Notes: generated by a model from the letters alone, not told the origin. A DNA stretch of 64,000 bases from an uncultured Gammaproteobacteria bacterium (GCA_963803185.1 CAWDMF010000007.1:2718-66717), one strand, 5' to 3'. Shown: positions 5,050 through 64,000, counted from the first letter of the stretch. Made by a program: numbers and translations.

Positions 5050-5051
5050 CT

Positions 5052-5972: not shown

Positions 5973-6091
5973 TTTTTTAAGGAATCGCCAGGCAACTCAA
6001 TTGGCCAGCATAATCTGGCCCTGTTCACAGCTGAGCTTTCGCAAGAAACTGGATTATTTTAAAAAAAACACCTTATTTGTCCTGAATCGTA

Positions 6092-6120: not shown

Positions 6121-6130
6121 TGCGCCCCTT

Positions 6131-6424: not shown

Positions 6425-6509
6425 GGAGGGGTTCCCGAGCGGTCAAAGGGGGCAGATTGTAAATCTGCTGGTTCTACCTTCGGAGGTTCAAATCCTCCCC
6501 CCTCCACCA
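6425..6509 (+). tRNA. tRNA-Tyr (anticodon GTA), long variable arm
   Basis: GGAGGGGTTCCCGAGCGG.. anticodon loop GATTGTAAATC, 85 nt with variable arm, CCA end; matches E. coli tyrU. Confidence 0.9.
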
Positions 6510-6740
6510 GAAATTTTTACAGGTGCTGGCAAGGTTAACAGGCTATGCAGTGGGTAGGCTCTCTCAGATAGGGAGGGTTTGAACCGATAAGAGGCCATGT
6601 GATCGGTTTGGCAAAATTGCCGGGAGCAATTTTGAACGTTGCGTTTATTGCAACGGCCCGAAGGGCGGAGAACAGGATGTTCGGAGTAATCCTCCCCTCC
6701 ATCAAAAAGCTAGAAAAGGGAGTCATTCGCAAGTTGATTT

Positions 6741-6814
6741 GCGGGTGTAGTTCAATGGTAGAACTTCAGCCTTCCAAGCTGAATACGTGGGTTCGATTCC
6801 CATCACCCGCTCCA
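6741..6814 (+). tRNA. tRNA-Gly (anticodon TCC)
   Basis: GCGGGTG..CACCCGC acceptor, anticodon loop CTTCCAA, GGTTCGATTCC T-arm, CCA. Confidence 0.9.
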
Positions 6815-6864
6815 TATTTGGTGTGTAAGGTTTGATAAGCCAGGCGGGAATGCTAAGGGTTTTG

Positions 6865-6940
<76 letters not shown>

Positions 6941-7048
6941 GTTGTAGTTTTAAGTTGCGGCTTTATGCTGTGTCAGCTTAAAAAGCATGAATTTTTTTTA
7001 AATATTTGTTTATTAATTTAGATTAATACTTTCGGGGGGGCACTAGAC

Positions 7049-8239: not shown

Positions 8240-8295
8240 TTGTTTGCTCTAAATGAGTATGGCGGGAGGTAAGACCATGTCCTACCTCTCGTTAC

Positions 8296-8480
8296 GACGT
8301 ACATGGATGTGGCAAGTGCGGAAAATGCAGGAGCGATTTTCAGCCGACGTACATGGATGTGGCAAGTGCGGAAAATGCAGGAGCGATTTTCAGCCGACGT
8401 ACATGGATGTGGCAAGTGCGGAAAATGCAGGAGCATTTTTTCCGCCAAGTACATGGATGTGGGAAATGCAGGTATTGCAT
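8296..8480. repeat. tandem repeat, 50-bp unit x ~3.7
   Basis: ACATGGATGT starts at 8301, 8351, 8401, 8451 (exact 50-bp period); unit cgacgtacatggatgtggcaagtgcggaaaatgcaggagcgattttcagc, last copy degenerate. Confidence 0.85.
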
Positions 8481-8499
8481 AAGCAAATATCTGCCTGTT

Positions 8500-8575
8500 A
8501 GGCCAGTGGCTCAATTGGTAGAGCAGCGGTCTCCAAAACCGCAGGTTGGGGGTTCGAGTCCCTCCTGGCCTGCCA
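8500..8575 (+). tRNA. tRNA-Trp (anticodon CCA)
   Basis: AGGCCAG..CTGGCCT acceptor, anticodon loop CTCCAAA, GGTTCGAGTCC T-arm, CCA. Confidence 0.9.
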
Positions 8576-8602
8576 ATATTAATAAGATGGCAGGTGGTTA
8601 AA

Positions 8603-8980
8603 ATGGTCGCCAAGACCGAAGAAGTAGTTTCAAGCAAACTGGATACATTCAAGTTGATGCTAGCAATAGCGGTACTGATATTCGGTATTGTTGGCTTTTA
8701 TTACTACGAAGCTGAATCGCAGTTATATCGCGTGCTGGGCGTCGTGTTTGCGGTGCTGGTAGCTATCGCTATCAGTTCTACCACGCGTTTAGGGCAGGGT
8801 TTAATAGGTTTTGGTCGTGAAGCGCGTATGGAAGTGCGGAAAGTGGTATGGCCAACGCGTCAGGAAACCGTGCAGACAACCTTTATGGTTATTGTTGCTG
8901 TAATTATTATCGGTATCTTTCTCTGGTTAATTGATATGTTGCTTTCGCAGGCAATACAGTTAATAACGGGAGGCGCATAG
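8603..8980 (+). CDS. secE: preprotein translocase subunit SecE
   Basis: Start trimmed to Met after tRNA-Trp; conserved [18 protein letters not shown] motif; precedes nusG. Confidence 0.85.
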
Positions 8981-50104: not shown

Positions 50105-50330
50105 TCAGCACATGCGTATACGATGTTCAGGACGAACAAGTGTCTCGGGAGGCAGGAAGCCGGGAGAGACAATCATGGTGGTAGAAACATCGGCATGACC
50201 GAGTAATTCCTGCACCGTCTTACCCCGTTAGAACACACTGCCAAAATACAATTTTATGTGTGCTTTCTAACGGGCGAATATCATAACCGGATTCCAGTAG
50301 TGGGTCGCAAAGGCTAATGGGGTCAAGTCG
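50105..50330 (-). pseudogene. decayed C-terminal remnant of a tyrosine recombinase
   Basis: Minus-strand frames read ..AFATH.. and ..GKTVQELLGHADVSTTMI.. (box II / LLGH..TT.IY motif) interrupted by stops; no intact ORF. Confidence 0.55.
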
Positions 50331-50419
50331 TACATATCACATCAATTGCTTTAACAGCCTGACTAATAAAAGTGTCAAATGTAAGACTTGACCACCATAC
50401 CTTTAACGGGACGGTCGTG

Positions 50420-50812
50420 TTACCAGATATAATCGATCACAGCCTGGATCTGTTGTGAATTTAGCTCCCAGTAATATTTATCAAACGCCTCTTTTTTCCT
50501 TTTACGATGTTGTAAATTAATCACTCCACCAGAACCTTCATCCAGGTCCTGTAGTAAATCAAAATATTGCGGTTCATTTAAAATAATCCTGCCTGACTTA
50601 TCAAAATAATAGATGCCGCCTTCAATACGCGGGCAATAATCAGGTTTTTTATTTTCAAGTAATAAATAGGCGTGAGCAATATGAATAGATGCATTTGAAA
50701 ATTCTTTAACAGACTCTTTACCTGAGCTGATACGTTTCCATTTTGCATAAGGTATGCGAGTAACATTACCAGCATCAGAAAAGTAAAAAATATAAACAGT
50801 GTGGCTAGTCAT
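50420..50812 (-). CDS. hypothetical protein immediately downstream of intI (start overlaps intI stop)
   Basis: 130-aa ORF, no recognisable motifs; ATG overlaps TGA of intI C-terminal fragment. Confidence 0.4.
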   Translation of the reverse strand: MTSHTVYIFYFSDAGNVTRIPYAKWKRISSGKESVKEFSNASIHIAHAYLLLENKKPDYCPRIEGGIYYFDKSGRIILNEPQYFDLLQDLDEGSGGVINLQHRKRKKEAFDKYYWELNSQQIQAVIDYIW

Positions 50813-52228
50813 TATTCACTAAAATCATCCAGCGGGCTTTTTATATTGTCATGGTTCTTTTGCATCACGTGTGTGTAGATTTCTGTGGTTTTAACATCGT
50901 TATGCCCTAACAATACCTGTAACACCCGAATATTTTCACCATTTTCTAATAAGTGTGTGGCAAAGCTATGTCTATTATTCCGAGCTCGGAATAATAGACA
51001 TAATGCCGAGTTCCGGATTATTCCGAGTAGCAAACCGAAACACGGTGAATCACGGGATCTTGAGTACATCGAACTCGGCATAATCAGAGGCTATTCAGAA
51101 AAGCCAGTAGCTGATCATCGGGCCGATAACGTGCCATGGGTATATTTGAAGGAGTTGTCGTCGCCAAGGCTTTTTCTTTAAGTTTTAGATCTGCGTGGAG
51201 ATAGATATAGGTTGTTTCTACAGACTCATGACCAAGCCAGAGCGCAATAACAGTGTGATCAAAGCCAATAAAAGAAGACAGCCTGATTATTCCGAGTAAT
51301 CAAGCAGTGGATACCCTCATAAACCATTGAATGTAGGTATATGTCAGACGCATGTCAACATGCTACTCGGAATAATCCGGAACTCGGCATTATGTCTAAG
51401 CGTATGTGGCGAAGTGCGTTTAATGATCCCGGCCTTAATTCTTGCACTTGATACCGCTTTTTGTAGTGCGCTTTTATTAAGATGATGTCGCATAACTTTC
51501 CCGGAGCGCGGATCAGTCGAGCGTACTTTAGAAGGAAACAAATATTGCCAGCCCAATGAAATGTTTGCTTTGCTGTATTTACGACTTAATGCTGTCGGCA
51601 AATAAACTTCACCATAACCATCGGCTAAATCTTTATTGTGCAGTTGCTTTACCACTTCAATTTGGTCACGAATGGGTTGATGCAAAGCATCAGGGAAAAT
51701 TGTAGTGCGATCTTTGTCGCCTTTGGCATTTCTGACATAAATTTGATTATTTTCAAAATCAATGTCATGAATGCGTAAACGAATAACTTCCAACGAGCGT
51801 AAACCAGAGCCATACATCAAGTAGGCTAATGTTTTTGCCGTGCCCGACATGCAGGTCAACAAGGACTTTACTTCATCTTTACTTAATACGGTAGGCAGTC
51901 TTTTCCCTTTAGTTGTACGCCTGGCGCGGATATCAAGATCCATTGGCATATCAAGTACTTTTTTATAAAGGAACATAATGGCATTAAATGCCTGGTTCTG
52001 AGTTGAAGCTGCGACGTTGCGATTAACCGCAAGATGGCTTAAGAACCGTTCAATTTCAAACTTACCCATCTCCCTGGGGTGTTTCTTTCCATTGAAACGA
52101 ATAAATTTTAAGATCCATTCAACATACGATTTTTCAGTATTGTATGCGTAATGATAAAACCGAAGTGTTTCGCGTACCTGATCCATTAATCTGGTCGCAG
52201 TGGGTCGAAACGTAACTGACTCATCCAT
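50812..52228 (-). pseudogene. intI: integron integrase gene interrupted by a ~425-bp MITE insertion
   Basis: N-terminal part 51393-52228 has IntI signature (LPTALSRKYSKANISLGWQYLFPS, additional domain) and ends ..SPHTLRH then runs into element; C-terminal part ([36 protein letters not shown]) resumes at 50970 in continuity. Confidence 0.85.
50971..51398. mobile_element. non-autonomous MITE-like element with 36-bp perfect terminal inverted repeats and subterminal ATTATTCCGAG repeats
   Basis: TIR AGACATAATGCCGAGTTCCGGATTATTCCGAGTAGC at 50996-51031 and reverse-complemented at 51363-51398; ATGTCT present at both junctions; no coding capacity. Confidence 0.75.
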
Positions 52229-52547
52229 GATAAAAATCCTTTTAATTGGTGTATTAGCAATAGCTTAACTTATGGCTACTTTTGCCCTTAAATATCGTAA
52301 TAGGGCGCCTTGGTTAAAAATTCTTACATTACAAGGCTACTTTACCCCTTAAATATCGCAATAGGTAGCCATAGTCATGTAATATGATAAATATTCTAAA
52401 TTTAAGCACTGTCTGAGGCGTCTTTTACCCCTTAAATATCGTAATAGGGCGCCTTATAGGGTGTATATTATAAAAAATAGGACGCCTTAGAAGGCGTCAT
52501 ATCGACAAGTTAGCTTCATAAAAAAATACATCTTAGGGAATTTTATA
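52229..52547. promoter_or_regulatory. attI-like region with three ~40-bp direct repeats and a GTTAGCT core next to first cassette
   Basis: GGCTACTTT(g/a)CCCTTAAATATCG(t/c)AATAGG repeated at 52272, 52333, 52412; palindrome GACGCCTTAGAAGGCGTC; lies between intI start and first cassette. Confidence 0.5.
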
Positions 52548-53222
52548 ATGGGAAAGTACTCTCTTAAAAAAGAATTAGATACAACAGAGTTAATTAAATG
52601 GGGTAGCGCTGTTATAGGTGGTCTAGCCATATTTTTAGTGATAACTCTAAAAGATTATGAATTAAAAAAATACGAAATTCTTGAAAAAGAGGCCGTATTA
52701 ATAGAGAAGGCTGGTAACCAATTATTAAAAGGGTTTGAGTTAATGAAAAATTACAAGCCCAGTATAGATGTCCACTACACCAATATGCTATCCGAAAAAG
52801 CTGATGAACTTCACATTAGAGTTTATATCAAATCTACATCAAAAAACGATATATATATTTTTCCTCCAAAGTTGACTTTAATTGATGTAGAGGGAAATGA
52901 GATTGATACCAATCTGTATAAAGCTGGTGATATAAAATCATTTAAAGGAAGTATTAGTCCAGAGTCATCGTTTCAAATAAATTATAAAATATTCTTGCTA
53001 AATATAGACACTGATAAAATTGGCAATGTACAGCTTGACTATGAGGTTCAAATAGATCAACTGGCTTCAGCACCTATAAAGATGTACTTTGAAGAATATG
53101 GATCGGAGAAGGAGAAAGAGCTCTTTAATGTGCTTAACTCTAAAAAGTATATTTATCGAGAAAGGGTATATGCTTATGCGGGTAATCCCATTTGGAATGA
53201 TTTTTGGGAAAATCCGAGATAA
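52548..53222 (+). CDS. integron cassette ORF 1, membrane-anchored hypothetical protein
   Basis: N-terminal TM helix, followed by attC. Confidence 0.6.
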   Translation: MGKYSLKKELDTTELIKWGSAVIGGLAIFLVITLKDYELKKYEILEKEAVLIEKAGNQLLKGFELMKNYKPSIDVHYTNMLSEKADELHIRVYIKSTSKNDIYIFPPKLTLIDVEGNEIDTNLYKAGDIKSFKGSISPESSFQINYKIFLLNIDTDKIGNVQLDYEVQIDQLASAPIKMYFEEYGSEKEKELFNVLNSKKYIYRERVYAYAGNPIWNDFWENPR

Positions 53223-53225
53223 CTA

Positions 53226-53286
53226 AGCTAACAAGTTAATTAACGGCGACCGCAAAAAACGCGTCGCGTTATTTTTAACGTTATGT
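53226..53286 (+). other. attC site 1
   Basis: Imperfect palindrome TAACAAG...GCGACCGC..GCGTCGCG...AACGTTATGT. Confidence 0.55.
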
Positions 53287-53293
53287 TTAAAAA

Positions 53294-53671
53294 ATGAATT
53301 GGAAAATAATGGAAATATTCAAAGGCATTGATCTTAATGATTCATTTGTTCTTTCATGGCATCAAGGAACAAACGAACTTACTTTCGAGCTCGAAACAAG
53401 CATTTGGCCAGAATCTACATACTATGAGAAACCTAAACCAAATGAACATACTTGTTATAAACGAGCTATTCTTTCATTTAAAAACATTAAAGAGCTAAAT
53501 GGTCTACTAGAACTAAATCAAGTAAAAGCCACAACTGATGCTTCTGGTGAAAAAGACTATGGAAACATAGATAACTTAGAACAAAATGATAAGGGTTTTC
53601 TAGTTGAAGGTGAATTTGGTTCAGTCTCAATTGCAGGCGGAGAAATAAGCTTTGAAATCAAAAAAACATAA
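53294..53671 (+). CDS. integron cassette ORF 2, hypothetical
   Basis: ORF bounded by attC sites. Confidence 0.55.
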   Translation: MNWKIMEIFKGIDLNDSFVLSWHQGTNELTFELETSIWPESTYYEKPKPNEHTCYKRAILSFKNIKELNGLLELNQVKATTDASGEKDYGNIDNLEQNDKGFLVEGEFGSVSIAGGEISFEIKKT

Positions 53672-53752
53672 CAAGGCAATCAAGTTCGCCCGTAAAAATC
53701 ACGGGCTTGGACGCGGCAAAAGACGCCGCGCCACTTATTTATAACGTTATGT
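53666..53752 (+). other. attC site 2 (family B)
   Basis: ACATAAC inverse core ... GTTATGT core, internal imperfect palindrome. Confidence 0.6.
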
Positions 53753-53779
53753 GTGAAAAAATAAAAATGAGAAAAATAA

Positions 53780-54040
53780 ATGAGTGATGAATTTGAAGTA
53801 AATATGTCACCACTATGCCAAACCATATCAAGTGGTGGCAAGACATTGCAGGTCGATATTTATGAAGATGGTAATGGCAAGTGGATTTTAGAGGTAGTGG
53901 ATGAATTTAATAACTCTACTGTATGGGACGATTCATTTGAAACAGATAAAGCTGCCTTAACAGAAGCTAAAAAAACAATATTATCTGAGGGTGCAAGTAT
54001 ATTAGTTGGGCCTGAGTCAGGTAAAGGCGAATGGAGTTAA
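53780..54040 (+). CDS. integron cassette ORF 3, hypothetical
   Basis: ORF bounded by attC sites. Confidence 0.55.
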   Translation: MSDEFEVNMSPLCQTISSGGKTLQVDIYEDGNGKWILEVVDEFNNSTVWDDSFETDKAALTEAKKTILSEGASILVGPESGKGEWS

Positions 54041-54050
54041 AAAATAAAAC

Positions 54051-54137
54051 ACATAACAAATCAATCAAGTTCGCCAGCAAAAGGCGCTGGCTTGGACTCC
54101 GCAAAAAACGCTCCGCCACTTATTTCGGACGTTATAT
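54051..54137 (+). other. attC site 3 (family B, similar to site 2)
   Basis: ACATAACAAATCAATCAAGTTCGCC...CCACTTATTTCGGACGTTATAT. Confidence 0.6.
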
Positions 54138-54154
54138 TTAAAAGATAAAAAAGC

Positions 54155-54412
54155 ATGAATGAAGAACAAATTCTAAATGTAGCAAAGGTACTCGAAGAGT
54201 GGAACCCACTTGGCGAGGCAGCTAATACTGTAGAGCAATTAGATGGTTACCGTTATGAGGCAATTGATATTATTTCAACAATCCAAATAGTTAATGGCCC
54301 AGGTAAAATAAAAGAATCAATAGAGCAGGTATTAACACAAGCATTCAATATTGAGCTTAATGAAGTTAAGCTTACTGAGGCAGAAAACAAAATAAAGAGC
54401 CTAATCAGTTAA
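54155..54412 (+). CDS. integron cassette ORF 4, hypothetical
   Basis: ORF bounded by attC sites. Confidence 0.55.
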   Translation: MNEEQILNVAKVLEEWNPLGEAANTVEQLDGYRYEAIDIISTIQIVNGPGKIKESIEQVLTQAFNIELNEVKLTEAENKIKSLIS

Positions 54413-54438
54413 TCATCATGCTCTTATTAAATAAAAAA

Positions 54439-54530
54439 TATAACAAGCCGCTCAACATTGACCGTTTTTACACGCCGCGCCGTTTCACTTTGCTCTGTGT
54501 AAAACCGTCAGGTTATGCTGAGCGTTATGC
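54439..54530 (+). other. attC site 4 (family A: CTCAACATTGACC..TTTACACGCCGC..)
   Basis: TAACAAG...GTTATGC; related to attC 7, 9, 12. Confidence 0.6.
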
Positions 54531-54574
54531 ACATAAAAAAACCCAGGTGTTAACAAAAATAAATTGGAGGCGTA

Positions 54575-54778
54575 ATGGATCCTGATAAAATGATGAGTGA
54601 CATTTCAAAAGAAATACTTACGGCATTAAAAGCAATGGCAAAAGCAAAAAACCCTGAAGAAAAACTGATACACAGTGAAATAGTAAAGAATCTATGTGAT
54701 TCACTTGGAGTTTTTCTTAGTTTAATAAGTGATATGGCTCTATATGATGATGACGATGATGAACCAATCCCATTTTAA
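54575..54778 (+). CDS. integron cassette ORF 5, small protein with acidic tail (DDDDDEPIPF)
   Basis: 67-aa ORF; near-identical second copy at 57200. Confidence 0.55.
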   Translation: MDPDKMMSDISKEILTALKAMAKAKNPEEKLIHSEIVKNLCDSLGVFLSLISDMALYDDDDDEPIPF

Positions 54779-54789
54779 AATCACGTTTG

Positions 54790-54875
54790 CATAACAAATA
54801 AATTAACGCAGATCGCCATAGACGCCGTTTGTTTTCAAATAGGCCGTGCAGCGGCTGGTTATTAAAACGTTATGT
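54790..54875 (+). other. attC site 5 (family C)
   Basis: CATAACAAATAAATTAACGCAGATCGCC...GGCTGGTTATTAAAACGTTATGT. Confidence 0.6.
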
Positions 54876-54896
54876 GTAAAAACCGAATCAAAAGAA

Positions 54897-55316
54897 ATGG
54901 ATATATTTAATAGTTTGGAGGTTGAAAAAGTATTTAATTCTTATCCGGATAATATCCGCATAAAAATGCTACTCCTTCGCCAGCTAGTTCTGGAAACAGC
55001 AGCGGAAATTGATAACGTTCAAAGCATTGAAGAAACTTTAAAATGGGGCGAGCCAAGCTATATAACAAAGCACGGGAGTACATTACGGATGGACTGGAAA
55101 AAATCAAATCCAGATCAATATGCAATGTACTTCCATTGTAAGACAAAACTTGTTGATACATTCAAAGAGCTTTATAAAGGCAAGTTCAAGTTTGAAGGCA
55201 ACAGAGCCATTGTATTTAATATAAAAGACAAAATACCAATTAATGAGCTAAAGCATTGTATTTCTTTATCTCTCACTTATCACAACATTAAACATCTACC
55301 AATGTTGGGTGTATGA
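54897..55316 (+). CDS. integron cassette ORF 6, possible DUF1801/YdhG-like protein
   Basis: Start moved to Met after attC; weak resemblance to DUF1801. Confidence 0.4.
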   Translation: MDIFNSLEVEKVFNSYPDNIRIKMLLLRQLVLETAAEIDNVQSIEETLKWGEPSYITKHGSTLRMDWKKSNPDQYAMYFHCKTKLVDTFKELYKGKFKFEGNRAIVFNIKDKIPINELKHCISLSLTYHNIKHLPMLGV

Positions 55317-55320
55317 TAAA

Positions 55321-55420
55321 AACACATAACAAGGCGCTGCACCGGAATTTTGCTTCGCTACGCTTCGCAAAATCCCGTGAGCTGGGTCGCTAGGGCCGTA
55401 AAAACAAGCAACTTGACATT
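55321..55420 (+). other. attC-like site 6 (lacks clear 3' GTTATG core)
   Basis: ACACATAACAAGG inverse core with internal palindrome but atypical 3' end. Confidence 0.35.
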
Positions 55421-55446
55421 CATCTAAATGTAAATACAATGTATTT

Positions 55447-55710
55447 ATGATTAAATTCGAATGGGATGCATCCAAAGCCACATCAAACAAAAGAAAACAT
55501 GGCGTTACTTTTGAAGAAGCACAGTCTGTGTTCTACGATGACTTTGCCATCCAGTTCTTTGATGATGAAAATTCAGAGCTAGAAGATAGGTTTCTTTTAC
55601 TAGGTCACAGTAACCAATCAAGGATATTACTTATCTGCCACTGTGAAAAAGAATCAGGCAATCTCATTCGAATCATATCAGCACGTAAAGCAACAGATAA
55701 AAGAGCGTAA
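55447..55710 (+). CDS. brnT: BrnT-family (DUF497) ribonuclease toxin
   Basis: FEWDxxKAxxNxxKHGVTFEEA motif. Confidence 0.8.
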   Translation: MIKFEWDASKATSNKRKHGVTFEEAQSVFYDDFAIQFFDDENSELEDRFLLLGHSNQSRILLICHCEKESGNLIRIISARKATDKRA

Positions 55711-55731
55711 GCTCTATAAAGGTGAAGCATA

Positions 55732-55957
55732 ATGAAAAAAGAATATGATTTATCTAAAATGAAATCACGTAAAAATCCATATGCATCAAAGCTCAAAAAG
55801 CCCGTAACAATGCGTCTTGGTGAGGATGTAATCAATTATTTTAAAGAGTATGGCTGAGGATTCAGGTGTACCTTATCAAAGCTTAATTAATTTATATCTT
55901 CGTGACTGTATTTCACAGCATCGTAAAGTAGATATATCTTGGAATCAAAAGCCCTAA
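55732..55957 (+). pseudogene. brnA: BrnA-family antitoxin with 1-bp frameshift in TTTTAAAG run (~55840)
   Basis: MKKEYDLSKMKSRKNPYASKLKKPVTMRLGEDVINYFK then frame switches to SMAEDSGVPYQSLINLYLRDC.. Confidence 0.7.
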
Positions 55958-56044
55958 CAATACGCTCAACATTGACCATTTTTACACGCCGCGCCACTTC
56001 GTTTTGCTCTGTGTAAAAACGTCAAGTTAGCTCCAACGTTTGGT
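55953..56044 (+). other. attC site 7 (family A)
   Basis: CTAACAATACGCTCAACATTGACCATTTTTACACGCCGCGCC...GTTTGGT. Confidence 0.5.
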
Positions 56045-56055
56045 GGAGGAAGACG

Positions 56056-56454
56056 ATGAAAACTCAAGTAACATTTCGATCAATGAATTTCCCTCCGTAC
56101 GATGGCGAAGAAGAGCAGATCAACCCAGGTCTCTGGGGCAAGAGGTTAGCTGAGTATTTTGTCGATAAACTGAAGCCACATGGCATCGAGACGGAAGAGA
56201 TCATTGCGGAAGATTGGGGATGGTACATTCCGATAAAGAACGAAGGATTCCGACTCGCTATTTGTTGTGGGCACCAAAATGGCGATGACGACGAGTTCTT
56301 GTGCTTCACCGACCCAGCAACACCAATAATCCGGAAATTCTTCAAGAAGATAAACGCGACACATGAGATCACGCGCGTCGTGGTCGCCATGGGTAATATA
56401 CTTTCGTCGGATCCAAGGATAACTGATATTGAGTGGACAGAAGTTGAGAAATGA
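56056..56454 (+). CDS. integron cassette ORF 8, hypothetical
   Basis: 132-aa ORF between attC sites. Confidence 0.55.
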   Translation: MKTQVTFRSMNFPPYDGEEEQINPGLWGKRLAEYFVDKLKPHGIETEEIIAEDWGWYIPIKNEGFRLAICCGHQNGDDDEFLCFTDPATPIIRKFFKKINATHEITRVVVAMGNILSSDPRITDIEWTEVEK

Positions 56455-56456
56455 CA

Positions 56457-56515
56457 CCGAACAAGGCTAATGCAGCCGACGCAAAAAGCCGCGCGGCTGA
56501 TTAGCAACGTTAGCA
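56457..56515 (+). other. attC site 8 (short)
   Basis: AACAAGG..GCCGCGCGGC..CAACGTTAGCA. Confidence 0.45.
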
Positions 56516-56568
56516 CCCATCAATACAAAAGTATGGCTATTTAGCCATATCAATGCTATATTTACCCT

Positions 56569-56859
56569 ATGAGTGAACAGGACTTCGAATGGGATGAGAC
56601 AAAAAACCAGGAAAATCAACGAAAACATGGCGTTACATTCTATGAAGCACAACATGCTTTCTTAGATACAAACCGTGTTATTGCTGAGGATTTGGAGCAT
56701 AGCCAGGCTGAAAAACGATATTATTGTTTCGGCTTAAATGAACAAGGCAATGGCATTCTTACTGTTCGGTTTACTTATCGGTCTGGTTGCATCCGTATAA
56801 TTGGTGCAGGTTATTGGCGCAAAGGTAAAAAGATCTATGAGCAAAACAATTCAATATAG
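56569..56859 (+). CDS. brnT: BrnT-family (DUF497) toxin, second copy
   Basis: FEWDETKNQENQRKHGVTFYEAQ. Confidence 0.8.
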   Translation: MSEQDFEWDETKNQENQRKHGVTFYEAQHAFLDTNRVIAEDLEHSQAEKRYYCFGLNEQGNGILTVRFTYRSGCIRIIGAGYWRKGKKIYEQNNSI

Positions 56860-57079
56860 TAACGAGCCAATCGGTGATTTAAAACTAATACCTGATTTTC
56901 TACCATCACCGGAAGAGCTCGCACTCAAACAACAAAATACTAAAGTCACAATATCTCTTAGTTCAGAGAGTGTTGCCTATTTTAAAGACACTGCAAAAAA
57001 ACATCACATGCAGTATCAAAAAATAATTCGGCAGTTACTCGATGAGTATGTGGCTCACCAAAAAAGTGCTAACAAGTAG
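56837..57079 (+). CDS. brnA: BrnA-family antitoxin, second copy (overlaps toxin 3' end)
   Basis: IPDFLPSPEEL..KVTISLSSESVAYFK, RHH/CopG-like; start at internal Met 56837. Confidence 0.7.
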   Translation: MSKTIQYSNEPIGDLKLIPDFLPSPEELALKQQNTKVTISLSSESVAYFKDTAKKHHMQYQKIIRQLLDEYVAHQKSANK

Positions 57080-57156
57080 CTCAACATTGACCATTTTATA
57101 CGCCGCTTCGTTTCACTTCGCAGCGTATAAAATGGCAAGTTAGCATGGCGTTATGC
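57076..57156 (+). other. attC site 9 (family A)
   Basis: CTCAACATTGACCATTTTATACGCCGCTTCGTTTCACT...GGCAAGTTAGCATGGCGTTATGC. Confidence 0.6.
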
Positions 57157-57199
57157 ACATAAAAACACCAGGTGTTAACAAAAATAAATTGGAGGAATA

Positions 57200-57373
57200 A
57201 TGGAACCTGATAAAATAATGAGTGACATTTCAAAAGAAATACTTACGGCATTAAAAGCAATGGCAAAAGCAAAAACCCCTGAAGAAAAACTGATACACAG
57301 TGAAATAGTAAAGAACCTATGTGATTCACTTGGAGTTTTTCTTGGTTTAATAAGTGATATGGCTCTATTATGA
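57200..57373 (+). pseudogene. duplicate of cassette ORF 5 with 1-bp insertion truncating the acidic tail
   Basis: MEPDKIMSDISKEILTALKAMAKAKTPEEKLIHSEIVKNLCDSLGVFLGLISDMALL*; TAT->TTAT shifts frame. Confidence 0.6.
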
Positions 57374-57415
57374 TGATGACGATGATGAATCAATCCCATT
57401 TTAAAATCACATTTG

Positions 57416-57501
57416 CATAACAAATAAATTAACGCAGGCCGCCATAGACGCCGTTTGTTTTCAAATAGGCCGTGCGGCGGCTGGTTATTAAAACGTTATG
57501 C
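57416..57501 (+). other. attC site 10 (family C, ~97% identical to attC 5)
   Basis: Direct alignment with 54790-54875. Confidence 0.6.
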
Positions 57502-57622
57502 CTATGAAGAGTTATGAGAGCTACTAAAGAGGACGTTCAACTCGGGTCAAGATGTTCTTGATTTGAACAAAAGATGGTGTTTATTCTTCCTGTACTTGTA
57601 CAATCAGATATTCAAAAAGGAT

Positions 57623-57838
57623 TTAATTGTACTCTCCAGGAAGATCGTTTTTTATAACAGTAACCTTGCCAAATTTCTTACCTGACATTCTCAATAATTC
57701 ATCACCTGAAAATTCAAAACCAAGCTTTAGTGCTATTCGCGCAACATCATCTGCAGTTGATGTTGCGAGCACCTCATTTTTAAGTGCAGGTTCAGACTGC
57801 ATTTTTATTAAAAATGCCTCGAGTTGATCTAATGCCAT
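57623..57838 (-). CDS. Nif11-domain-like small protein in an inverted-orientation cassette
   Basis: MALDQLEAFLIKMQSEPALKNEVLATSTADDVARIALKLGFEFSGDEL matches Nif11 N-terminal domain. Confidence 0.5.
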   Translation of the reverse strand: MALDQLEAFLIKMQSEPALKNEVLATSTADDVARIALKLGFEFSGDELLRMSGKKFGKVTVIKNDLPGEYN

Positions 57839-57979
57839 ATTTGAAATTCCTATTCTCGCTAGCTGTTCATATATTAAACAGAAAAACCATTACAGGTTTC
57901 TAGCAAATTCTACTATTCTTTCAAGATATAGGCAATGAGTGGAACTCCCGGAAGACTAGATATATTGTGCAAGAAAAGG

Positions 57980-58085
57980 CATAACAATGGCAATTGAGTG
58001 GGACTTGCCTTCCGCGGTGTTCGTTTGTGCTTGATAGCACAAGCCTCACCCCGCTCCGGCAAGCCCCTCATTGCGAGCGTTAGCA
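57980..58085 (+). other. attC site 11 (long)
   Basis: CATAACAATGG...GCGAGCGTTAGCA with internal palindromic arms. Confidence 0.45.
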
Positions 58086-58135
58086 TCTCAAAAACTACAT
58101 TGACAAGTGTAATCCAATGGATTATACTTGTAGTC

Positions 58136-58474
58136 ATGCAAGCCATAGTCGAACTACCTGAATTCCTGAGAAAATCTGATAAATTACTCAGCAATACAGA
58201 AAGACTAAGTATTATCAATTATTTAGCTGAGCATCCGGCGGCTGGCGATATCATGCAAGGCACTGGTGGTATTCGTAAATTAAGGTGGTCTGCACAAGGT
58301 AAAGGCAAAAGTGGCGGTGTACGTGTGATCTATTACCATCACAATGAATCAATGCCTTTATTTTTATTAACACTGTTTGGTAAAGGCGAAAAAGCCAACT
58401 TAACCAAATCTGAGAGTAACGATCTAGCCAAATTCACATCGTTATTAATTAAGAACTATGGAGGCCAAAAATGA
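58136..58474 (+). CDS. higB: RelE/ParE-superfamily toxin, HigB-like
   Basis: GGIRKLRWSAQGKGKSGGVRVIYY motif; start at internal Met 58136. Confidence 0.7.
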   Translation: MQAIVELPEFLRKSDKLLSNTERLSIINYLAEHPAAGDIMQGTGGIRKLRWSAQGKGKSGGVRVIYYHHNESMPLFLLTLFGKGEKANLTKSESNDLAKFTSLLIKNYGGQK

Positions 58475-58758
58475 GTAAAGCATTTGATAGTATCAAACAA
58501 GGCCTTGATGAAGCTTTAGAGTTTTCAAAAGGCAAAAAAGGAAAAGCAGTGGTGCATGAATTCACACCTTTAGATGTAAAAAACATTCGAGCCAAGGTAG
58601 GTATGTCACAAAATGAGTTCGCATCAGCATTCGGCATAAGTGTTAGCACACTCCGCCACTGGGAGCGCGGAGACAGAACACCACATGGCCCTGCATTAGT
58701 TTTATTAAATGTAGTCGCCAAAGAGCCCAAAGCAGTACTTAAAGCACTGAGTCACTAA
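58471..58758 (+). CDS. higA: XRE-family HTH antitoxin, HigA-like
   Basis: HTH (MSQNEFASAFGISVSTLRHWERGDRTP); 4-bp overlap with toxin. Confidence 0.7.
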   Translation: MSKAFDSIKQGLDEALEFSKGKKGKAVVHEFTPLDVKNIRAKVGMSQNEFASAFGISVSTLRHWERGDRTPHGPALVLLNVVAKEPKAVLKALSH

Positions 58759-58838
58759 GTGCTAACAAGTAGCTTAACTTTGACCATTTTATACGCCGCT
58801 TCGTTTCACTCCACTCTGTATAAAATGGCAAGTTAGCA
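58759..58838 (+). other. attC site 12 (family A), truncated by IS insertion
   Basis: Matches attC 9 up to GGCAAGTTAGCA then diverges into IS terminal repeat GGTTCCGTCGCAAA. Confidence 0.55.
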
Positions 58839-59636
58839 GGTTCCGTCGCAAATAAGTGAATTGGCGCCAACATTTCCTGAACGTCATTCCGCTTACGCAG
58901 CCAGGGCATAGAATTGATCAGCAAATGATAAATTACGCGAGATGTTTTTTTTCATTTGTCCTTTTTTGATCATAGCAACCAGCTCAATTCCAGCCAATGT
59001 GCTTTGAGCTGAATTGAAGTTTTTGAAGCCAAGCATTGGTCGTGTTAACCGTTTTATTCGTCGGTGATCCTGCTCTATGATGTTGTTCAAGTATTTACAT
59101 TGACGCACTTTAACTCGCTTATTGTTGTCTTCATTGAACTGAGTTAAAGCGGCTTTATTAGAGCCACTTTTATCGATGTTTACTAAGCCAGGCTTGCCGT
59201 TTCTTTCAATAGCTTTGGTGAAATATCTTAGCGCAGCCGCTTTATCGCGCTTGGCGGTGAGGAGGAAGTCGATGGTATTTCCCTGCTTATCGACAGCTCG
59301 GTAATAATATTTCCACTCGCCTTTAACCTTGATATAGGTCTCGTCCATTCTCCATCGATCACCTGGACGTCTCTTCTTTTGATGGAAAGCCTTTTCAAGT
59401 TGAGGCGAGTAGAAAGTAACCCAGCGATTCAATGTGCTATGATCAACCTCGATGCCTCGCTCTGCCACCATCTCTTCGATATTCCGATAGCTAAGGGCAT
59501 ATGCACAATACCATCTTACACATTGAAGAATAATTTCACGAGGGAAGTGTCGCGATTTAAAACTGATCATATGGAGCTACTTGAAGTAAAGTTGAGTTTC
59601 AACATTATACTCGAACGGCCTGAATGCGACAAAACC
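58839..59636 (-). mobile_element. IS6-family insertion sequence (~798 bp)
   Basis: 14-bp imperfect terminal IRs GGTTCCGTCGCAAA (58839) and GGTTTTGTCGCATT (revcomp at 59623-59636); single transposase ORF; no flanking 8-bp duplication. Confidence 0.75.
58893..59570 (-). CDS. IS6-family (IS26-like) DDE transposase
   Basis: MISFKSRHFPREIILQCVRWYCAYALSYRNIEEM..MDETYIKVKG..YYYRAVD typical of IS6 Tnp. Confidence 0.85.
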   Translation of the reverse strand: MISFKSRHFPREIILQCVRWYCAYALSYRNIEEMVAERGIEVDHSTLNRWVTFYSPQLEKAFHQKKRRPGDRWRMDETYIKVKGEWKYYYRAVDKQGNTIDFLLTAKRDKAAALRYFTKAIERNGKPGLVNIDKSGSNKAALTQFNEDNNKRVKVRQCKYLNNIIEQDHRRIKRLTRPMLGFKNFNSAQSTLAGIELVAMIKKGQMKKNISRNLSFADQFYALAA

Positions 59637-59690
59637 CCGGTAATTAGTCGAAATAACAAACCACATATTCAGCTTGAAAAAGGACAGTAT

Positions 59691-62600
59691 ATGATCACCG
59701 GGCAATTTAGCTGGGAACAGTGCCCAAAATCACTCTCTATTCCCAGTGAGACAGGCCTGGTTTATTTAACAATAGACAATACAAAAGTAGCGTTACCTGA
59801 CTTTCGCCAGGGCAAGTTGTGGCTAAAAACAACCAGCGCTTCAACACATCAAAACAACCGATTAGAGCTGCAGGTATTTAGAAAAATATCTGACACCATC
59901 CCCATGCGTGTTATCACGCAAATTAAACTTGATGTATCAGGTCAGCAACGTGAAATTATCCTCGATGGCGCTTTACTTAATGGCTTTAGCCCGAGTGCCA
60001 TTGATAGTCCTCTGCCATCACAGTTGGATAAAGGTGGACGTTTAAAAGTCCAGATAAGACCAGGGCAATGGACAGTTGATATCAGTGCTTTTAACCCGCG
60101 ACAACTAGAGTCGATTGTACTTCCTTCCTTTAAGACCCCCTGGCCAGGTAATGAAGTGTGGGTAGTAGACCAGCAGACACAGCTCCGCCTGATAAAAGTA
60201 GTCGACAAAAATAGTATTGATCCGAATCAAACACAACTGCCACAGCGTTGGAAATCCTATCCCGCATACAATATGCAAGGTGGTGAAAAATTATCGTTTA
60301 AAGTCATTAAACGTGGTGATCCTGACCCGGAGCCCGATCAATTAAGTATTAAAAAAAGAATATGGCTGGATTTTGATGGCAATGGATTTACCATAAACGA
60401 CAAACTCACCGGCACGCTTACAAAGCAATGGCGACTAAATGCGTCGTCAGATGTCTCGTTAGGACAGGTCACACTTAATGGTAAGCCACAATTTATAACA
60501 ACAGACAGCAATAATAAACAAGGCGTTGAGGTAAGACACGGGAATCTTGATCTATCCGCTGATAGTCGCGTAATAGGCGACACGCGAATACTGTCATCCG
60601 GTGGCTGGGATATGGACTTTAATCAGGCTGAGGCTACGCTATTTCTGCCGGCTGGGTGGCGGTTACTGTCTTTGACAGGTGCGAATACCAGCAACACCTG
60701 GATTGACAAATGGTCACTCCTGGATCTATTTATGGTGCTGATAACTGCGATTGCTATCTACAAGTTGTGGGGGATTCGATGGGGTGTATTAGGGTTGGTT
60801 GCCTTAATTATCTTGTGGCATGAGTACGATGCACCACAGTATATATGGATAAATCTGATCATCGCTATTGCCATGTTGCGATCTTTGCCACAGGGTCGTT
60901 TTTATAAAATTATCACTAGCTATCGTCTGTTGACATCTGTTGTTCTGTTGCTCATTACATTACCGTTTATCGTTAATCAGGCACGAACGGCCATTTATCC
61001 GCAACTCGAATTTAGTAACATGAGTGCAAGTAACTCCTTTGCACGGGATGCTGTCTACCCGGCTTCAACTGTATCTCCAGTACAAAAACTGTCTAGTTCG
61101 GTCGCTGAAAGGGCGTTAATGGCAGATGAGGAACCTATGCTCAGCAGTGTAGGACGAGGTAAGTCAGGCTATCTGTATGAAAAGAAACATAAGCAAATAA
61201 TCACCATCGATCCAGACGCGATGATACAAACCGGCCCAGGCCTGCCATCCTGGACACTGCATCAGTTTCACTTACGCTGGGATGGGCCTGTCCGTCACGA
61301 TCAGACGATTTCAATGACGTTGCTATCGCCGGCGATGAACTCACTGCTCAATATACTGAGAATCGCACTGGTATTGCTACTGGCCTGGCGTCTTCTTGAT
61401 ATTGGTTCATTGAAAATACCAAAACTTCCCGTTAAAGCAGAAAGCAAGACGTTAGTAACAATATTTCTAGTCGGTAGCCTGTTTGGTTTATCACCAACAC
61501 CTGCAGATGCTGCCTATCCGTCACAGGAAATGCTTAATCAATTATATGATGAGCTAACCAGGGAGCCAGAGTGTTTACCCCAGTGTGCGAGTATCGAGGC
61601 ACTGGATATTGATTTATCGTCGGAGCAGCTCACCCTGAACATGCGAGTTCATGCACATGAGAATGTCTCGCTGCCACTACCAGTCCCCGTTAAACAATGG
61701 TCCCCCTCTAAGATAAGCGTCGATGATAAATCTTCAGCCATCCTTTCGCGTCAGAGTGATTCGACACTATGGATCTATTTAACAGAAGGCAGTCACACGG
61801 TTAAATTTAGTGGTCGTGTAACAGCTTTAGATCTTCTGCAACTTAGCTTTCCATTAAAACCGCATCATATAGCATTAACCATGAAAGGTTGGACAGAGGA
61901 GGGTATGGACAGCCAGGCGTATAAAATTACAGCACTCTCTTTTCAACGGATTGCAGATAAAACCAGTCCTTCAAAGACTAATAAGATAGAGCAAAAAGAG
62001 ATTCCCGTTTATGCTGAAGTAACAAGAGAATTACAGCTGGGACTGGACTGGTACGTTACGACAACCGTACAAGGTGTTTCAGGTAGTGCTTACCCGGTTA
62101 TTTTAGAGATCCCCTTACTGACGGGTGAATCGGTGGTAACCGACAATATTAAAGTGGTTGATGGCCATGCAATCATTACACTCAGCCGCCCAGATCAGAA
62201 AATAAGGTGGACATCAAAACTTAAAATTAATGATCAGATTAACCTAAAGGCAAGTGAGCAGGGCAGGTTCATCGAGAAATGGTCACTCAATTCAAGTGCT
62301 ATCTGGCACATTGACTATGATGGTATACCTGTCATCTATCACCAACGGTATGCGAACCAGTGGCAGCCGGAATGGCAGCCATGGCCGGGTGAAGAGGTAG
62401 TCATTTATGTCAGCCGTCCTGAAGGGGTTAAGGGCAACACTATTACCATTGATAGCAGTAAGCTTTCATTAACACCTGGTGAGCAAATAACAGCATCAAA
62501 ACTGGCCTTTAATCTGCGCAGTAGCCTCGGTGGACAGCATACTATTAAGATTCCTGAAAACACTGATCTGCAGACGGTCATGATAAATGGTCAGAGTATG

Positions 62601-63392
62601 CCTATTCGGCGTACCGATGAAGGTATCGCTTTGCCGGTATCACCCGGTAATCAAAAAGTTGAAATAAACTGGCATGAGACACGTGGTATCAGTCCATTTT
62701 ATAAATCTTCTGAGGTTGATCTAGGAACGCAGAGTGTCAATCATGGGCTTCAAATTGAGCCAGGTTATAACCGTTGGGTATTATTTACATCAGGACCGAC
62801 TATGGGACCGGCTGTTTTATTCTGGGGTGTGTTTGGTGTAATTATTCTTATTGCTATCGGATTAGGACGTGTAAAAGGTACTCCGCTGAGTACACTTCAG
62901 TGGTTGATACTGGCAATTGGATTAAGCGCATCTGAACCCTGGGCCGTGATAATCATCGCCGTGTGTATCCTGGCACTTAAAGCGCGCGCTTCCCTAAACA
63001 CAGTGACTTTGAGCAATACAAAATTTAACTTTATCCAAATAGGACTTGTGGGCTTAATGTTCTTCTCGATCAGTACATTGATCGTAGCAATCCAACAAGG
63101 ACTGCTCGGTTCACCTGACATGCAAATCATTGGTAATGGATCCAACGCCAATCAACTCAACTGGTTTAGTGATCGCATATCATCAAATACACCATCTGCA
63201 TTGGTAATATCGGTACCTGTCTTTGCTTATCGTCTGATGATGCTGGCCTGGTCGATTTGGTTGGCATTTGCGCTTATAAAATGGGCACAATGGGGGTGGG
63301 GTAGCTTCACGAGCCAGGAGTATTGGCGAAACGTATCAATAAAGAACATCTCTACTAAGAAGAAAGGAGAGAGTGATGAATCAAAAAACTAG
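59691..63392 (+). CDS. giant (1233 aa) multi-pass membrane protein of unknown function; possibly 5'-truncated by the IS6 element
   Basis: Open frame is continuous back into the IS; first Met after IS end at 59691; TM cluster mid-protein and ~6 TM helices at C-terminus, no signal peptide. Confidence 0.5.
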   Translation: MITGQFSWEQCPKSLSIPSETGLVYLTIDNTKVALPDFRQGKLWLKTTSASTHQNNRLELQVFRKISDTIPMRVITQIKLDVSGQQREIILDGALLNGFSPSAIDSPLPSQLDKGGRLKVQIRPGQWTVDISAFNPRQLESIVLPSFKTPWPGNEVWVVDQQTQLRLIKVVDKNSIDPNQTQLPQRWKSYPAYNMQGGEKLSFKVIKRGDPDPEPDQLSIKKRIWLDFDGNGFTINDKLTGTLTKQWRLNASSDVSLGQVTLNGKPQFITTDSNNKQGVEVRHGNLDLSADSRVIGDTRILSSGGWDMDFNQAEATLFLPAGWRLLSLTGANTSNTWIDKWSLLDLFMVLITAIAIYKLWGIRWGVLGLVALIILWHEYDAPQYIWINLIIAIAMLRSLPQGRFYKIITSYRLLTSVVLLLITLPFIVNQARTAIYPQLEFSNMSASNSFARDAVYPASTVSPVQKLSSSVAERALMADEEPMLSSVGRGKSGYLYEKKHKQIITIDPDAMIQTGPGLPSWTLHQFHLRWDGPVRHDQTISMTLLSPAMNSLLNILRIALVLLLAWRLLDIGSLKIPKLPVKAESKTLVTIFLVGSLFGLSPTPADAAYPSQEMLNQLYDELTREPECLPQCASIEALDIDLSSEQLTLNMRVHAHENVSLPLPVPVKQWSPSKISVDDKSSAILSRQSDSTLWIYLTEGSHTVKFSGRVTALDLLQLSFPLKPHHIALTMKGWTEEGMDSQAYKITALSFQRIADKTSPSKTNKIEQKEIPVYAEVTRELQLGLDWYVTTTVQGVSGSAYPVILEIPLLTGESVVTDNIKVVDGHAIITLSRPDQKIRWTSKLKINDQINLKASEQGRFIEKWSLNSSAIWHIDYDGIPVIYHQRYANQWQPEWQPWPGEEVVIYVSRPEGVKGNTITIDSSKLSLTPGEQITASKLAFNLRSSLGGQHTIKIPENTDLQTVMINGQSMPIRRTDEGIALPVSPGNQKVEINWHETRGISPFYKSSEVDLGTQSVNHGLQIEPGYNRWVLFTSGPTMGPAVLFWGVFGVIILIAIGLGRVKGTPLSTLQWLILAIGLSASEPWAVIIIAVCILALKARASLNTVTLSNTKFNFIQIGLVGLMFFSISTLIVAIQQGLLGSPDMQIIGNGSNANQLNWFSDRISSNTPSALVISVPVFAYRLMMLAWSIWLAFALIKWAQWGWGSFTSQEYWRNVSIKNISTKKKGESDESKN

Positions 63393-64000
63393 TATGATGA
63401 GCCAGGAAACACAATCCACAGTTTTTGATTATCGATTATTACGACTTGTAATCGGTATTATCGCGTTGTCATTACCATTGGTTGTATGGATGTCTGCTGG
63501 TACCAAGCTTACCTCTATCAGTGCATCGTACTACACAGATGCGCGAAACTATTTTGTTGGGATGTTATTTGTGGTATCAGCATTCTTGCTGGCCTATAAC
63601 GGCCACTTTTTAAGGGAAGCATTAGCAAGCAAGATCGCTTCACTTGCTGCTGCGGGTATCGCGTTATTTCCTACGCTTTGTGATGAGGTCATAACCACGA
63701 ATATATGTTTAGCTTGTTCAACACTGAACACAGCCATCGTTCATTATGTGTGTGCATTTACTATGTTTGGTATTCTGGCTTATTTTTGTCTGGGTCCTTT
63801 TAGTGATAAGACAAAGACACGAGGGGCAATGTATGATCGCCGTCGATGGGTCTATCAAGTTTGTGGCTGGGGAATCATAGTCTCTTTTGCTTTAGGTGGA
63901 GTTACTATGATGATGTTTAAATATTTAGATATATCCAGTGATAATAGAATTTTATTTTGGGTTGAATCACTGGCGCTTATCTGCTTTGGTATTGCCTGGA
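63376..64000 (+). CDS. polytopic membrane protein of unknown function (partial, runs off window end)
   Basis: ATG at 63376 overlaps end of upstream gene; >=5 hydrophobic helices in first 200 aa. Confidence 0.5.
   Translation, partial: MNQKTSMMSQETQSTVFDYRLLRLVIGIIALSLPLVVWMSAGTKLTSISASYYTDARNYFVGMLFVVSAFLLAYNGHFLREALASKIASLAAAGIALFPTLCDEVITTNICLACSTLNTAIVHYVCAFTMFGILAYFCLGPFSDKTKTRGAMYDRRRWVYQVCGWGIIVSFALGGVTMMMFKYLDISSDNRILFWVESLALICFGIAW

Follow-up and report, generated by a model that had tools for sequence, protein, structure and literature searches.

A Miniature Derivative of a RIT Element Splits an Integron Integrase Gene at Its Box II Codons

We have analyzed a 64,000-nucleotide stretch of DNA from an uncultured Gammaproteobacteria bacterium (GCA_963803185.1 CAWDMF010000007.1:2718-66717; this whole stretch is called the window below), in which a 418-bp element sits in the integrase gene (intI) of a chromosomal integron and splits its product, IntI. 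The element is a miniature, non-autonomous derivative of a 3.4-kb RIT (recombinase-in-trio) element from which ritA, ritB, and five sixths of ritC have been deleted. As judged by comparison with its relatives, it was very probably placed in intI by site-specific recombination catalyzed by Rit tyrosine recombinases of a subfamily that homes to box II of tyrosine-recombinase genes. A preliminary description of the window had assigned the element to a novel family of miniature inverted-repeat transposable elements (MITEs). Our results agree with this in so far as the element is short and non-coding, has terminal inverted repeats, and derives from a mobile element; they do not support a novel family, as matches on plasmids and a full-length parent place the element among the known RIT elements.

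A RIT derivative in the integrase gene of an integron

The gene is interrupted, in the minus-strand sense, at ...HTLR|HSFA..., that is, where the box II codons H-x-x-R, which specify the second catalytic arginine, are followed by a histidine codon. Removal of 424 bp in silico restored an intact IntI of 330 aa (...RTSPHTLRH joined to the downstream part), in which Pfam recognized a Phage_integrase domain (PF00589) and an N-terminal SAM-like domain, Phage_int_SAM_4 (PF13495). The rejoined protein is 93-94% identical to two intact IntI proteins (P0001 and P0002) and 85-94% identical to proteins named integron integrase. This identity, the SAM-like domain, and an adjoining array of attC-like sites mark the host gene as that of an integron integrase. 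In three orthologues (L084-L086; 90% nucleotide identity, both flanks aligning) the empty site is a single CAT ACG CTT CGA CAT AGC. An exact look-up of the 294-aa truncated IntI product returned no match. Given that intI is otherwise intact, the insertion is recent, and with the integrase inactivated cassette shuffling should be frozen unless the element excises.

The descent of the insert can be followed through two sets of relatives. On plasmids, a blastn search matched the left 286 nt of the element to annotated integrase trios of Agrobacterium and Mesorhizobium, namely, to the 3' end of their third gene and the terminus that lies downstream of it (~67% nucleotide identity to ritC ends). 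Closer by far is a sister strain, represented by a metagenome contig that was found through a look-up of SSB and that also has the mini element, inserted at the identical position of intI (L082, 97% identical over 4.8 kb). Elsewhere on this contig, at a locus (L083) reached through the truncated IntI encoded there, the 5' part of intI runs into a complete RIT of 3,407 bp with the same termini as the window element, whose adjacent genes encode RitA (413 aa), RitB (305 aa), and RitC (334 aa), all with Phage_integrase domains. The window element is this RIT minus positions 5964-8970 (3,007 bp), with arms identical at 266/268 and 129/132 positions and a single deletion junction, GTGTGATCAAAGCCAATAAAAG, which is the same in L082. 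Thus, the autonomous partner expected in the preliminary description exists, but it carries three tyrosine recombinases and not a transposase.

What remains of ritC is 98.3% identical to RitC of L083 over 60 aa, as against 60-82% for the RitC tails of other loci. Pfam found no match in the isolated 57-aa remnant, which is too short, and the remnant is identified instead by comparison of DNA and protein with full-length copies. It retains the RitC-type C-terminal extension after the catalytic tyrosine; an extra C-terminal helix specific to RitC has been described (PMC8138268). The element also has a 38-nt terminal inverted repeat and a palindrome of 18+18 nt at one end, a layout found in L001 and at 34 long ends of relatives as well. 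For published RITs, inverted repeats of ~28-34 bp have been described at the termini, one of which carries an "overlapping palindromic sequence" (PMC3414803, PMC10214605). Homologous termini and a gene remnant therefore attest descent from a trio-bearing element. The trio itself is present in the parent, whereas the window copy holds only 59 codons of ritC, and no rit gene was found elsewhere in the 64 kb. Since the trio is missing from it, we file the window copy as a deletion derivative and not as an autonomous member of the family.

The features of the insert and of the split gene are listed here from left to right. An end is called "short" when the inverted repeat abuts the flank directly and "long" when a ~20-bp palindrome of two 10-mers and 4 variable nt precede the repeat; the 6-bp sequence at the junctions is called the overlap.

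50812..50974, minus strand: 3' part of intI (...LGH...Y...stop), severed from the 5' part; aligns to L084-L086 across the empty site
50969..50974, unstranded: 6-bp overlap at the long end, TGTCTA; single copy in the empty site of the orthologues (CTT CGA CAT AGC)
50975..50994, unstranded: 20-bp palindrome marking the long end, two 10-bp arms back to back, TTATTCCGAG and then CTCGGAATAA
50985..51010, unstranded: complete inner core-type site (10-6-10), as read from the sequence: arm CTCGGAATAA, overlap TAGACA, arm TAATGCCGAG
50995..51032, unstranded: left arm of the 38-nt repeat; its outer 6 nt (50995-51000, TAGACA) are a third copy of the overlap, inverted; ACGTCA in the sister strain
51074..51084, minus strand: third, inverted motif at the ritC end, ATTATGCCGAG on the minus strand, overlapping the ritC stop codon; its position (+74 to +86) is conserved in relatives
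51084..51262, minus strand: ritC remnant, the last ~59 codons and the stop; region of the catalytic Tyr LGHESVETTYIYLHA and RitC-specific C-terminal tail
51262..51263, unstranded: internal-deletion junction; 3,007 bp lost (ritA, ritB, and ritC codons 1 to ~275) by alignment to L083 5964-8970
51263..51360, minus strand: region that lies upstream of ritA in the parent, 129/132 identical to L083 8971-9102; third, inverted motif at 51286-51296
51361..51398, unstranded: right arm of the 38-nt repeat, the short end; 10-bp arm CTCGGCATTA (51383-51392), spacer CCGGAA, second motif CTCGGAATAAT (51366-51376)
51393..51398, unstranded: 6-bp overlap at the short end, TGTCTA on the plus strand, T-AGA-CA in the sense of intI; direct repeat of 50969-50974
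51399..52228, minus strand: 5' part of intI, residues 1 to ...PHTL; the next codons, R-H, lie within the short-end overlap and the element arm; open reading frame 51344..52228

The arms of the inverted repeat (50995-51032 and 51361-51398) are 100% complementary over 38 nt and stand 328 nt apart; the perfect 36-mer of the preliminary description lies within them. The outer 6 nt of each arm are overlap and not fixed element sequence, and they differ in L082. The 25-nt core of the repeat, ATGCCGAGTTCCGGATTATTCCGAG, has no second occurrence in the 64 kb even at 3 mismatches (0 expected). The motif ATTATTCCGAG occurs six times with at most one mismatch, every copy falling within the element (~1.03 expected; 0 of 100 shuffles reach 6). 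When the variant ATAATGCCGAG is included, the copies number eight, with starts at 50974(+), 50985(-), 51000(+), 51017(+), 51074(-), 51286(+), 51366(-), and 51383(-), and all eight of these 10/11-bp motifs have survived the deletion, as have both termini. The multiple subterminal motifs noted previously are thus real. Their reading as transposase-binding sites holds insofar as their positions are conserved across the family, as expected of sites bound by protein, but the proteins in question are tyrosine recombinases.

At the junctions stands a direct repeat of 8 bp, TATGTCTA (50967-50974 and 51391-51398). It includes ATGTCT, which had been correctly seen at both junctions and taken for a possible 6-bp target duplication; the 6-bp repeat is better read as a crossover sequence, the place of which is always N + Arg codon + CA of a conserved motif. 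The left junction carries a perfect palindrome of 18+18 nt (50967-51002), so that the two ends of the element are not equivalent. The 424-bp insert (50975-51398) is made up of 418 element-specific bp and one additional 6-bp overlap. The palindrome was rejected as a part of the target, its removal being needed to restore intI. As for coding capacity, the earlier statement that the element has no open reading frame is correct for complete genes, but 51084-51262, on the minus strand, encodes the C-terminal ~59 residues of a tyrosine recombinase and includes its stop codon. Neither the element nor the sister-strain allele had more than chance-level matches in Rfam.

Target genes and end types among related loci

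To place the element in its family, genomes of GTDB representatives, one per species and not including the source genome, were scanned with the pattern ATAATKCCGAG-N6-ATTATKCCGAG. The scan gave 79 genome loci, and the repeat sequence was also found at 7 metagenome loci, for ~85 related loci overall; the scan loci come from Acidobacteriota, Desulfobacterota, Alpha- and Gammaproteobacteria, Gemmatimonadota, Actinomycetota, Myxococcota, and others. Most repeat pairs are ~3.4 kb apart and enclose ritABC. Close full-length relatives (RitABC 83-89% identical), from marine sediment metagenomes and two gammaproteobacterial metagenome-assembled genomes, likewise lie in box II of integrase genes.

The place of insertion follows a rule. 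At 39 of 62 short ends the repeat abuts an in-frame H-x-x-R-H with a long open frame upstream, and at 26 of 34 long ends the sequence continues as RH(S/T)FA... and 45-80 more codons, usually including GH...Y. Complete elements with one short and one long end have the R|H box II junction in 19 of 23 cases, and after rejoining an open frame runs across H-x-L-R|H in 18 (L038 is without the downstream part). The target genes are RitB-like genes of other RITs (n=9), IntI/Xer-like genes (n=6, two of them from the window lineage), and a third type of integrase gene (n=2); L002 is an annotated case of a RIT nested inside the ritB of another. Polarity is constant, in that the upstream gene half is always next to the short end and the downstream half next to the long end, and the direction of the rit genes is free, with ritC beside the long end in 12 elements and beside the short end in 7. 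As judged from sequence, the statistics over these loci show a RIT subfamily that homes to box II of tyrosine-recombinase genes.

The internal layout is conserved as well. In each of 26 full-length elements, motifs stand at +1 and +18 of either terminus, as at the short end of the window copy, and an inverted third motif stands at +74 to +86 (ritC end) or +95 to +98 (ritA end; the window motif at +98 is of this kind). The 10-6-10 architecture of the inner site recurs at the 34 long ends of relatives. The window copy keeps every one of the motif positions conserved in the 26.

Internally deleted derivatives of 0.4-2.4 kb have arisen independently in other phyla (L006 2007-2506, L049 2052-2453, L003 969-2170, L066 2674-4741, and L005 77-2467), of which L006 (500 bp, from a metagenome-assembled genome of Myxococcota) likewise keeps a ritC tail. 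Miniature forms thus seem to be recurrent within the RIT family.

These results bear directly on the view that the element is a classical MITE, namely, a derivative of a DDE-type insertion sequence that moved by cut-and-paste and left a 6-bp duplication from a staggered cut. Its size of 418 bp, its 38-nt inverted repeats, the lack of a complete open reading frame, and the short direct repeat at its junctions are all those of a MITE. The interior is nonetheless a ritC remnant, the parent encodes tyrosine recombinases only, and the ends are asymmetric, with an extra palindrome at one of them. Moreover, where a DDE-type partner would leave a duplication of fixed length at varied sites, the repeat here always falls on the same conserved codons and in fixed polarity, and the junction repeats are unequal in several relatives. 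We find this explanation scarcely credible. A true staggered-cut target duplication, considered in its own right, was rejected because the codon position is fixed, the ends are asymmetric, and the repeats of relatives are not always identical.

Overlap sequences, the sister-strain allele, and a model for recombination

Across the family, the duplicated unit is 6 bp long, NNNNCA, and spans the final base of the Leu codon, the whole Arg codon, and the CA of the His codon. At the upstream junction the His codon ends in T in every case, and this T belongs to the element, whose arm TAATKCCGAG begins with it; at the downstream junction the His codon follows the host gene, being CAC in 24 loci and CAT in 11. 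The constant CAT upstream, as against CAC or CAT downstream, places one crossover boundary after CA. In complete elements the overlap is present in three copies (upstream, inner, and downstream), which compare as follows.

All three identical: 8 of 23 complete elements
Upstream and downstream identical, inner different: 4 of 23
Inner and downstream identical, upstream different: 5 of 23
Upstream and inner identical, downstream different: 1 of 23
All three different: 5 of 23

NNNNCA is hence the same at both junctions in 12/23 elements, and inner and downstream copies agree in 13/23. The mixed classes would be the expected outcome of strand exchange across a non-identical overlap with subsequent replication.

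On the strength of this comparative anatomy we propose that the element arrived by conservative site-specific recombination mediated by RitA, RitB, and RitC, and not by DDE transposition. The recombination site would be a canonical core site in which two 10-bp arms flank a 6-bp overlap, CTCGGAATAA-NNNNCA-TAATGCCGAG, and the long end would correspond to one intact core site plus one further arm. In a form with joined ends, two core sites would lie back to back in inverted orientation, which for the window copy amounts to a perfect palindrome of 98 bp. Either core site could then cross over with box II codons, with an overlap that runs from the final base of the Leu codon through the Arg codon to CA. 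The product would have its short end, made up of arm and inverted repeat, next to the upstream gene half, and its long end, made up of inverted repeat, intact site, and arm, next to the downstream one. Crossover of either site with box II would thereby explain why the ends have a fixed polarity and the body is free in its orientation, and it would also explain the 6-bp repeat. It has been reported from mobilome sequencing that RIT DNA is protected from exonuclease yet non-circular (PMC5737581), which is compatible with a palindromic junction or a hairpin-ended intermediate.

Several loci depart from the arrangement of one short and one long end. Five elements (L021, L031, L060, L083, and L089) have two short ends and two (L012 and L088) have two long ends, implying recombination between copies or with a second target gene. 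The same full-length RIT has both ends long in L088 and both short in L089, the two being from sister metagenomes. In addition, 20-bp palindromes (TTATTCCGAG joined to CTCGGAATAA) occur without an element body in L004 (5242-5261), L043 (2575-2594), and L035 (1439-1458), where the 3' parts of two different tyrosine-recombinase genes meet head to head at the palindrome, with RH..FA... reading outward on both sides; only cases checked by hand were used, as the search pattern also matched the quasi-palindromic repeat itself. These solo palindromes look like footprints of recombination between the inner site of a RIT and a second target, and together with the forms with two short ends they fit an active inner site that recombines with other box II targets, being the predicted products of such recombination.

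Evidence that the mini element itself has recombined comes from the sister strain. L082 holds the same element with the same deletion junction, but with the body inverted between the repeats relative to the window and with inner and downstream overlaps of ACGTCA and GCGTCA, as against TAGACA and TAGACA. The inner ACGTCA of L082 is also the overlap at which the full-length copy meets a second integrase gene on the same contig (L083). A shared deletion junction combined with an inverted body and changed overlaps implies at least one recombination at the element's own sites after the deletion. The mini element cannot move alone, and we infer that it was acted on in trans after the deletion took place; movement as a mini element is no more than plausible.

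Three other accounts of the two alleles were weighed. In the first, the mini element is an inert remnant: a full-length RIT entered intI, was deleted internally in place, and neither moved nor recombined thereafter. In keeping with this, the full-length copy of the sister strain abuts exactly the same intI junction, and the mini element was found at a single site, in the window and in L082. The shared deletion junction is found, however, with inverted bodies and with inner and downstream overlaps that differ, and neither the perfect pairing of the 38-nt repeats nor any conserved motif has been lost; an inert remnant is a possibility, but on the whole an unlikely one. In the second account, exchange mediated by RecA between repeats of 34-38 bp explains the difference, with no Rit activity implied. 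Perfect inverted repeats this long can support rare RecA-dependent inversion. Against this account, such an inversion would leave the overlaps of the inner site and the downstream junction unchanged, whereas both differ between the alleles, and the repeats are close to the shortest on which RecA works efficiently; we therefore hold it to be improbable.

The third account is that of a programmed invertible switch of the fimS type, in which the 38-nt repeats flank a promoter-bearing segment that controls its neighbors. Both orientations of the segment do occur in two closely related strains, and a promoter-like TTGACA-17-TACATT lies inside it at 51358-51330. The count of such matches is not above that in shuffled sequence, however, the segment demonstrably arose by deletion from a mobile element, neither orientation leaves the flanking gene whole, and no invertase gene adjoins the element in the 64 kb; integration by way of either of two inverted core sites predicts the two orientations equally. 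A switch is accordingly very improbable.

The sister-strain contig has further peculiarities. L083 (5001-9817) and L082 (4700-5600) lie ~145 kb apart on it, with the 5' part of intI beside the full-length RIT, the 3' part beside the mini-RIT in opposite orientation, and ~122 nt of intI together with the repeat at both places, an arrangement that indicates, as far as the assembled sequence can be trusted, a large rearrangement or duplication. Within the ritC remnant of L082 there is a further element of ~210 bp (5040-5250) with 16-nt terminal inverted repeats (ACTGCTGTCCCGTTAA and TTAACGGGACAGCAGT) and no match in Rfam. It is flanked on both sides by AACCTATATC, of which the window has one copy at ~51204-51213, and it looks like a genuine small MITE-like insertion.

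A number of points weigh against the reading that Rit recombinases of a box II-homing subfamily placed the element in intI. Both strains in which the mini element was found have it at one and the same genomic site. No further copy turned up in PLSDB plasmids or GTDB representative genomes, a scan of JGI metagenomes for the deletion junction gave 0 matches, and of the source genome the search covered the 64 kb of the window. The window and sister alleles are not interconvertible by any single event of the model; a single inversion and a single excision with reintegration were both tried and rejected, as neither gives the three overlap sequences. The sister-strain contig is a metagenome assembly, in which rearrangements or assembly errors are possible. 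The locus set was gathered with an exact-match pattern and covers one RIT subfamily; within it, 4 of 23 complete elements lie outside recombinase genes, and published RITs sit in radC and in transposase genes (PMC2864759, PMC3414803). The class with three different overlaps (5/23) shows that the core-site model is incomplete, and the arms of the target bear no resemblance to those of the element. Finally, no circular or excised form was seen, and the mechanism is deduced from integrated copies.

A broader proposition is that RITs of this subfamily are homing parasites of tyrosine-recombinase genes, that their three recombinases pair a 10-6-10 core site with box II (H-x-L-R|H) of other recombinase genes, among them those of integron integrases and the ritB of rival RITs, that insertion proceeds in fixed polarity by way of either of two inverted core sites lying back to back, and that ~400 bp of terminal sequence are a sufficient substrate in trans. 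We regard it as evenly balanced between being right and being wrong. If true, the host recombinase would be disabled and the element would ride on whichever mobile element carries the target gene. RITs would gain a defined site, a defined target, and a minimal substrate, and the need for three recombinases could be explained, with the arms of the element and those of the target bound by different proteins.

Integron surroundings and comparison with known systems

To the right of intI, the window (52229-64000) holds a cassette array of small open reading frames separated by attC-like repeats of 75-82 nt (54441-54515, 55955-56029, 57064-57145, and 58757-58838). Within this array a stretch of ~340 bp is duplicated (54536-54874 and 57161-57500, 96% identical). 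Just upstream of the start of intI, where the attI site and promoter would be expected, are three direct repeats of 41 nt (52274-52458; GGCTACTTTTGCCCTTAAATATCGTAATAGGGCGCC...). Directly downstream of intI lies an open reading frame of 130 aa (50420-50812), the start of which overlaps the intI stop codon; it is missing from the sister strain, which is without window positions 50215-50878.

RITs, described in 2009-2013 (Van Houdt 2009/2012; Ricker, Qian & Fulthorpe 2013), are widespread, in at least eight phyla, and mechanistically obscure. The target specificity of RITs, the formation of empty sites, and the mode of movement are listed as not tested in the table of a 2023 review (PMC10214605), a 2012 analysis found no convincing layout of recombinase-binding sites (PMC3414803), and experimental transposition of a RIT has not been reported (PMC3414803, PMC2864759, PMC5737581, PMC10214605, PMC8138268). 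The same five papers make no mention of miniature RITs or of targeting of recombinase genes; the work of Ricker et al. (2013), which lies outside this comparison, may hold a prior description. Against this background, the intI locus gives a before-and-after pair in the form of intact orthologues and a split gene, and offers a minimal element with all conserved cis sites, its full-length parent, and two alleles set apart by recombination at sites of the element itself. In combination with the ~85 loci it leads to an explicit, testable model, consisting of a core site of 10+6+10 bp, a palindromic double junction, an overlap of N + Arg codon + CA, and a box II target. In broader terms, the locus would exemplify a recombinase-based mobile element that puts the recombinases of other elements out of action.

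The parent matches published RITs in its canonical ritA-ritB-ritC order, its overlapping genes, its inverted repeats of ~30-34 bp (PMC3414803), and the sizes of its proteins (413/305/334 aa), those published ranging over 315-410 aa (PMC10214605). The window copy differs in having lost all three genes (418 bp versus 3.4 kb), and the subfamily differs in its defined target (box II), its 10-6-10 core site, and the fixed polarity of its ends; insertion sites in the literature include radC, a tnpA of IS66, and a transposase gene of Tn6049, and "complex combinations" of truncated trios have been described as well (PMC3414803, PMC2864759, PMC5737581, PMC10214605, PMC8138268). With MITEs the element shares its shortness, the absence of coding capacity, terminal inverted repeats, an origin by internal deletion, and a need for enzymes in trans. 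It differs from them in its use of tyrosine recombinases, insertion that is specific in site and orientation, unequal ends, a repeat of crossover sequence, and the absence of any visible multi-copy amplification.

The Tn554 family, the strand-biased circularizing elements (SEs), and GInts resemble RITs in that several tyrosine recombinases act together and integration is site specific. Elements of these types can also take a 6-bp junction sequence along from site to site (PMC10214605). In the present elements a similar carry-over is suggested by inner and junction overlaps that are not always the same, as with the inner ACGTCA of L082, which equals the junction of L083 with the second integrase gene. 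The present elements differ in belonging to other recombinase subgroups, in having no fourth protein like TnpC or Srap, in their palindromic double core site, and in taking a protein-coding motif of recombinase genes as their target.

Finally, the choice of sequences typical of mobile DNA as targets is familiar from the "res hunters" Tn5053/Tn402, and from the IS1111-attC elements and group II introns that insert at integron attC sites. The target of the present elements is likewise of this kind, and their insertions therefore tend to hit integrons, other RITs, and islands that bear integrase genes. In contrast to those systems, the target is the catalytic-motif codons of the recombinase gene itself, and insertion inactivates the gene.

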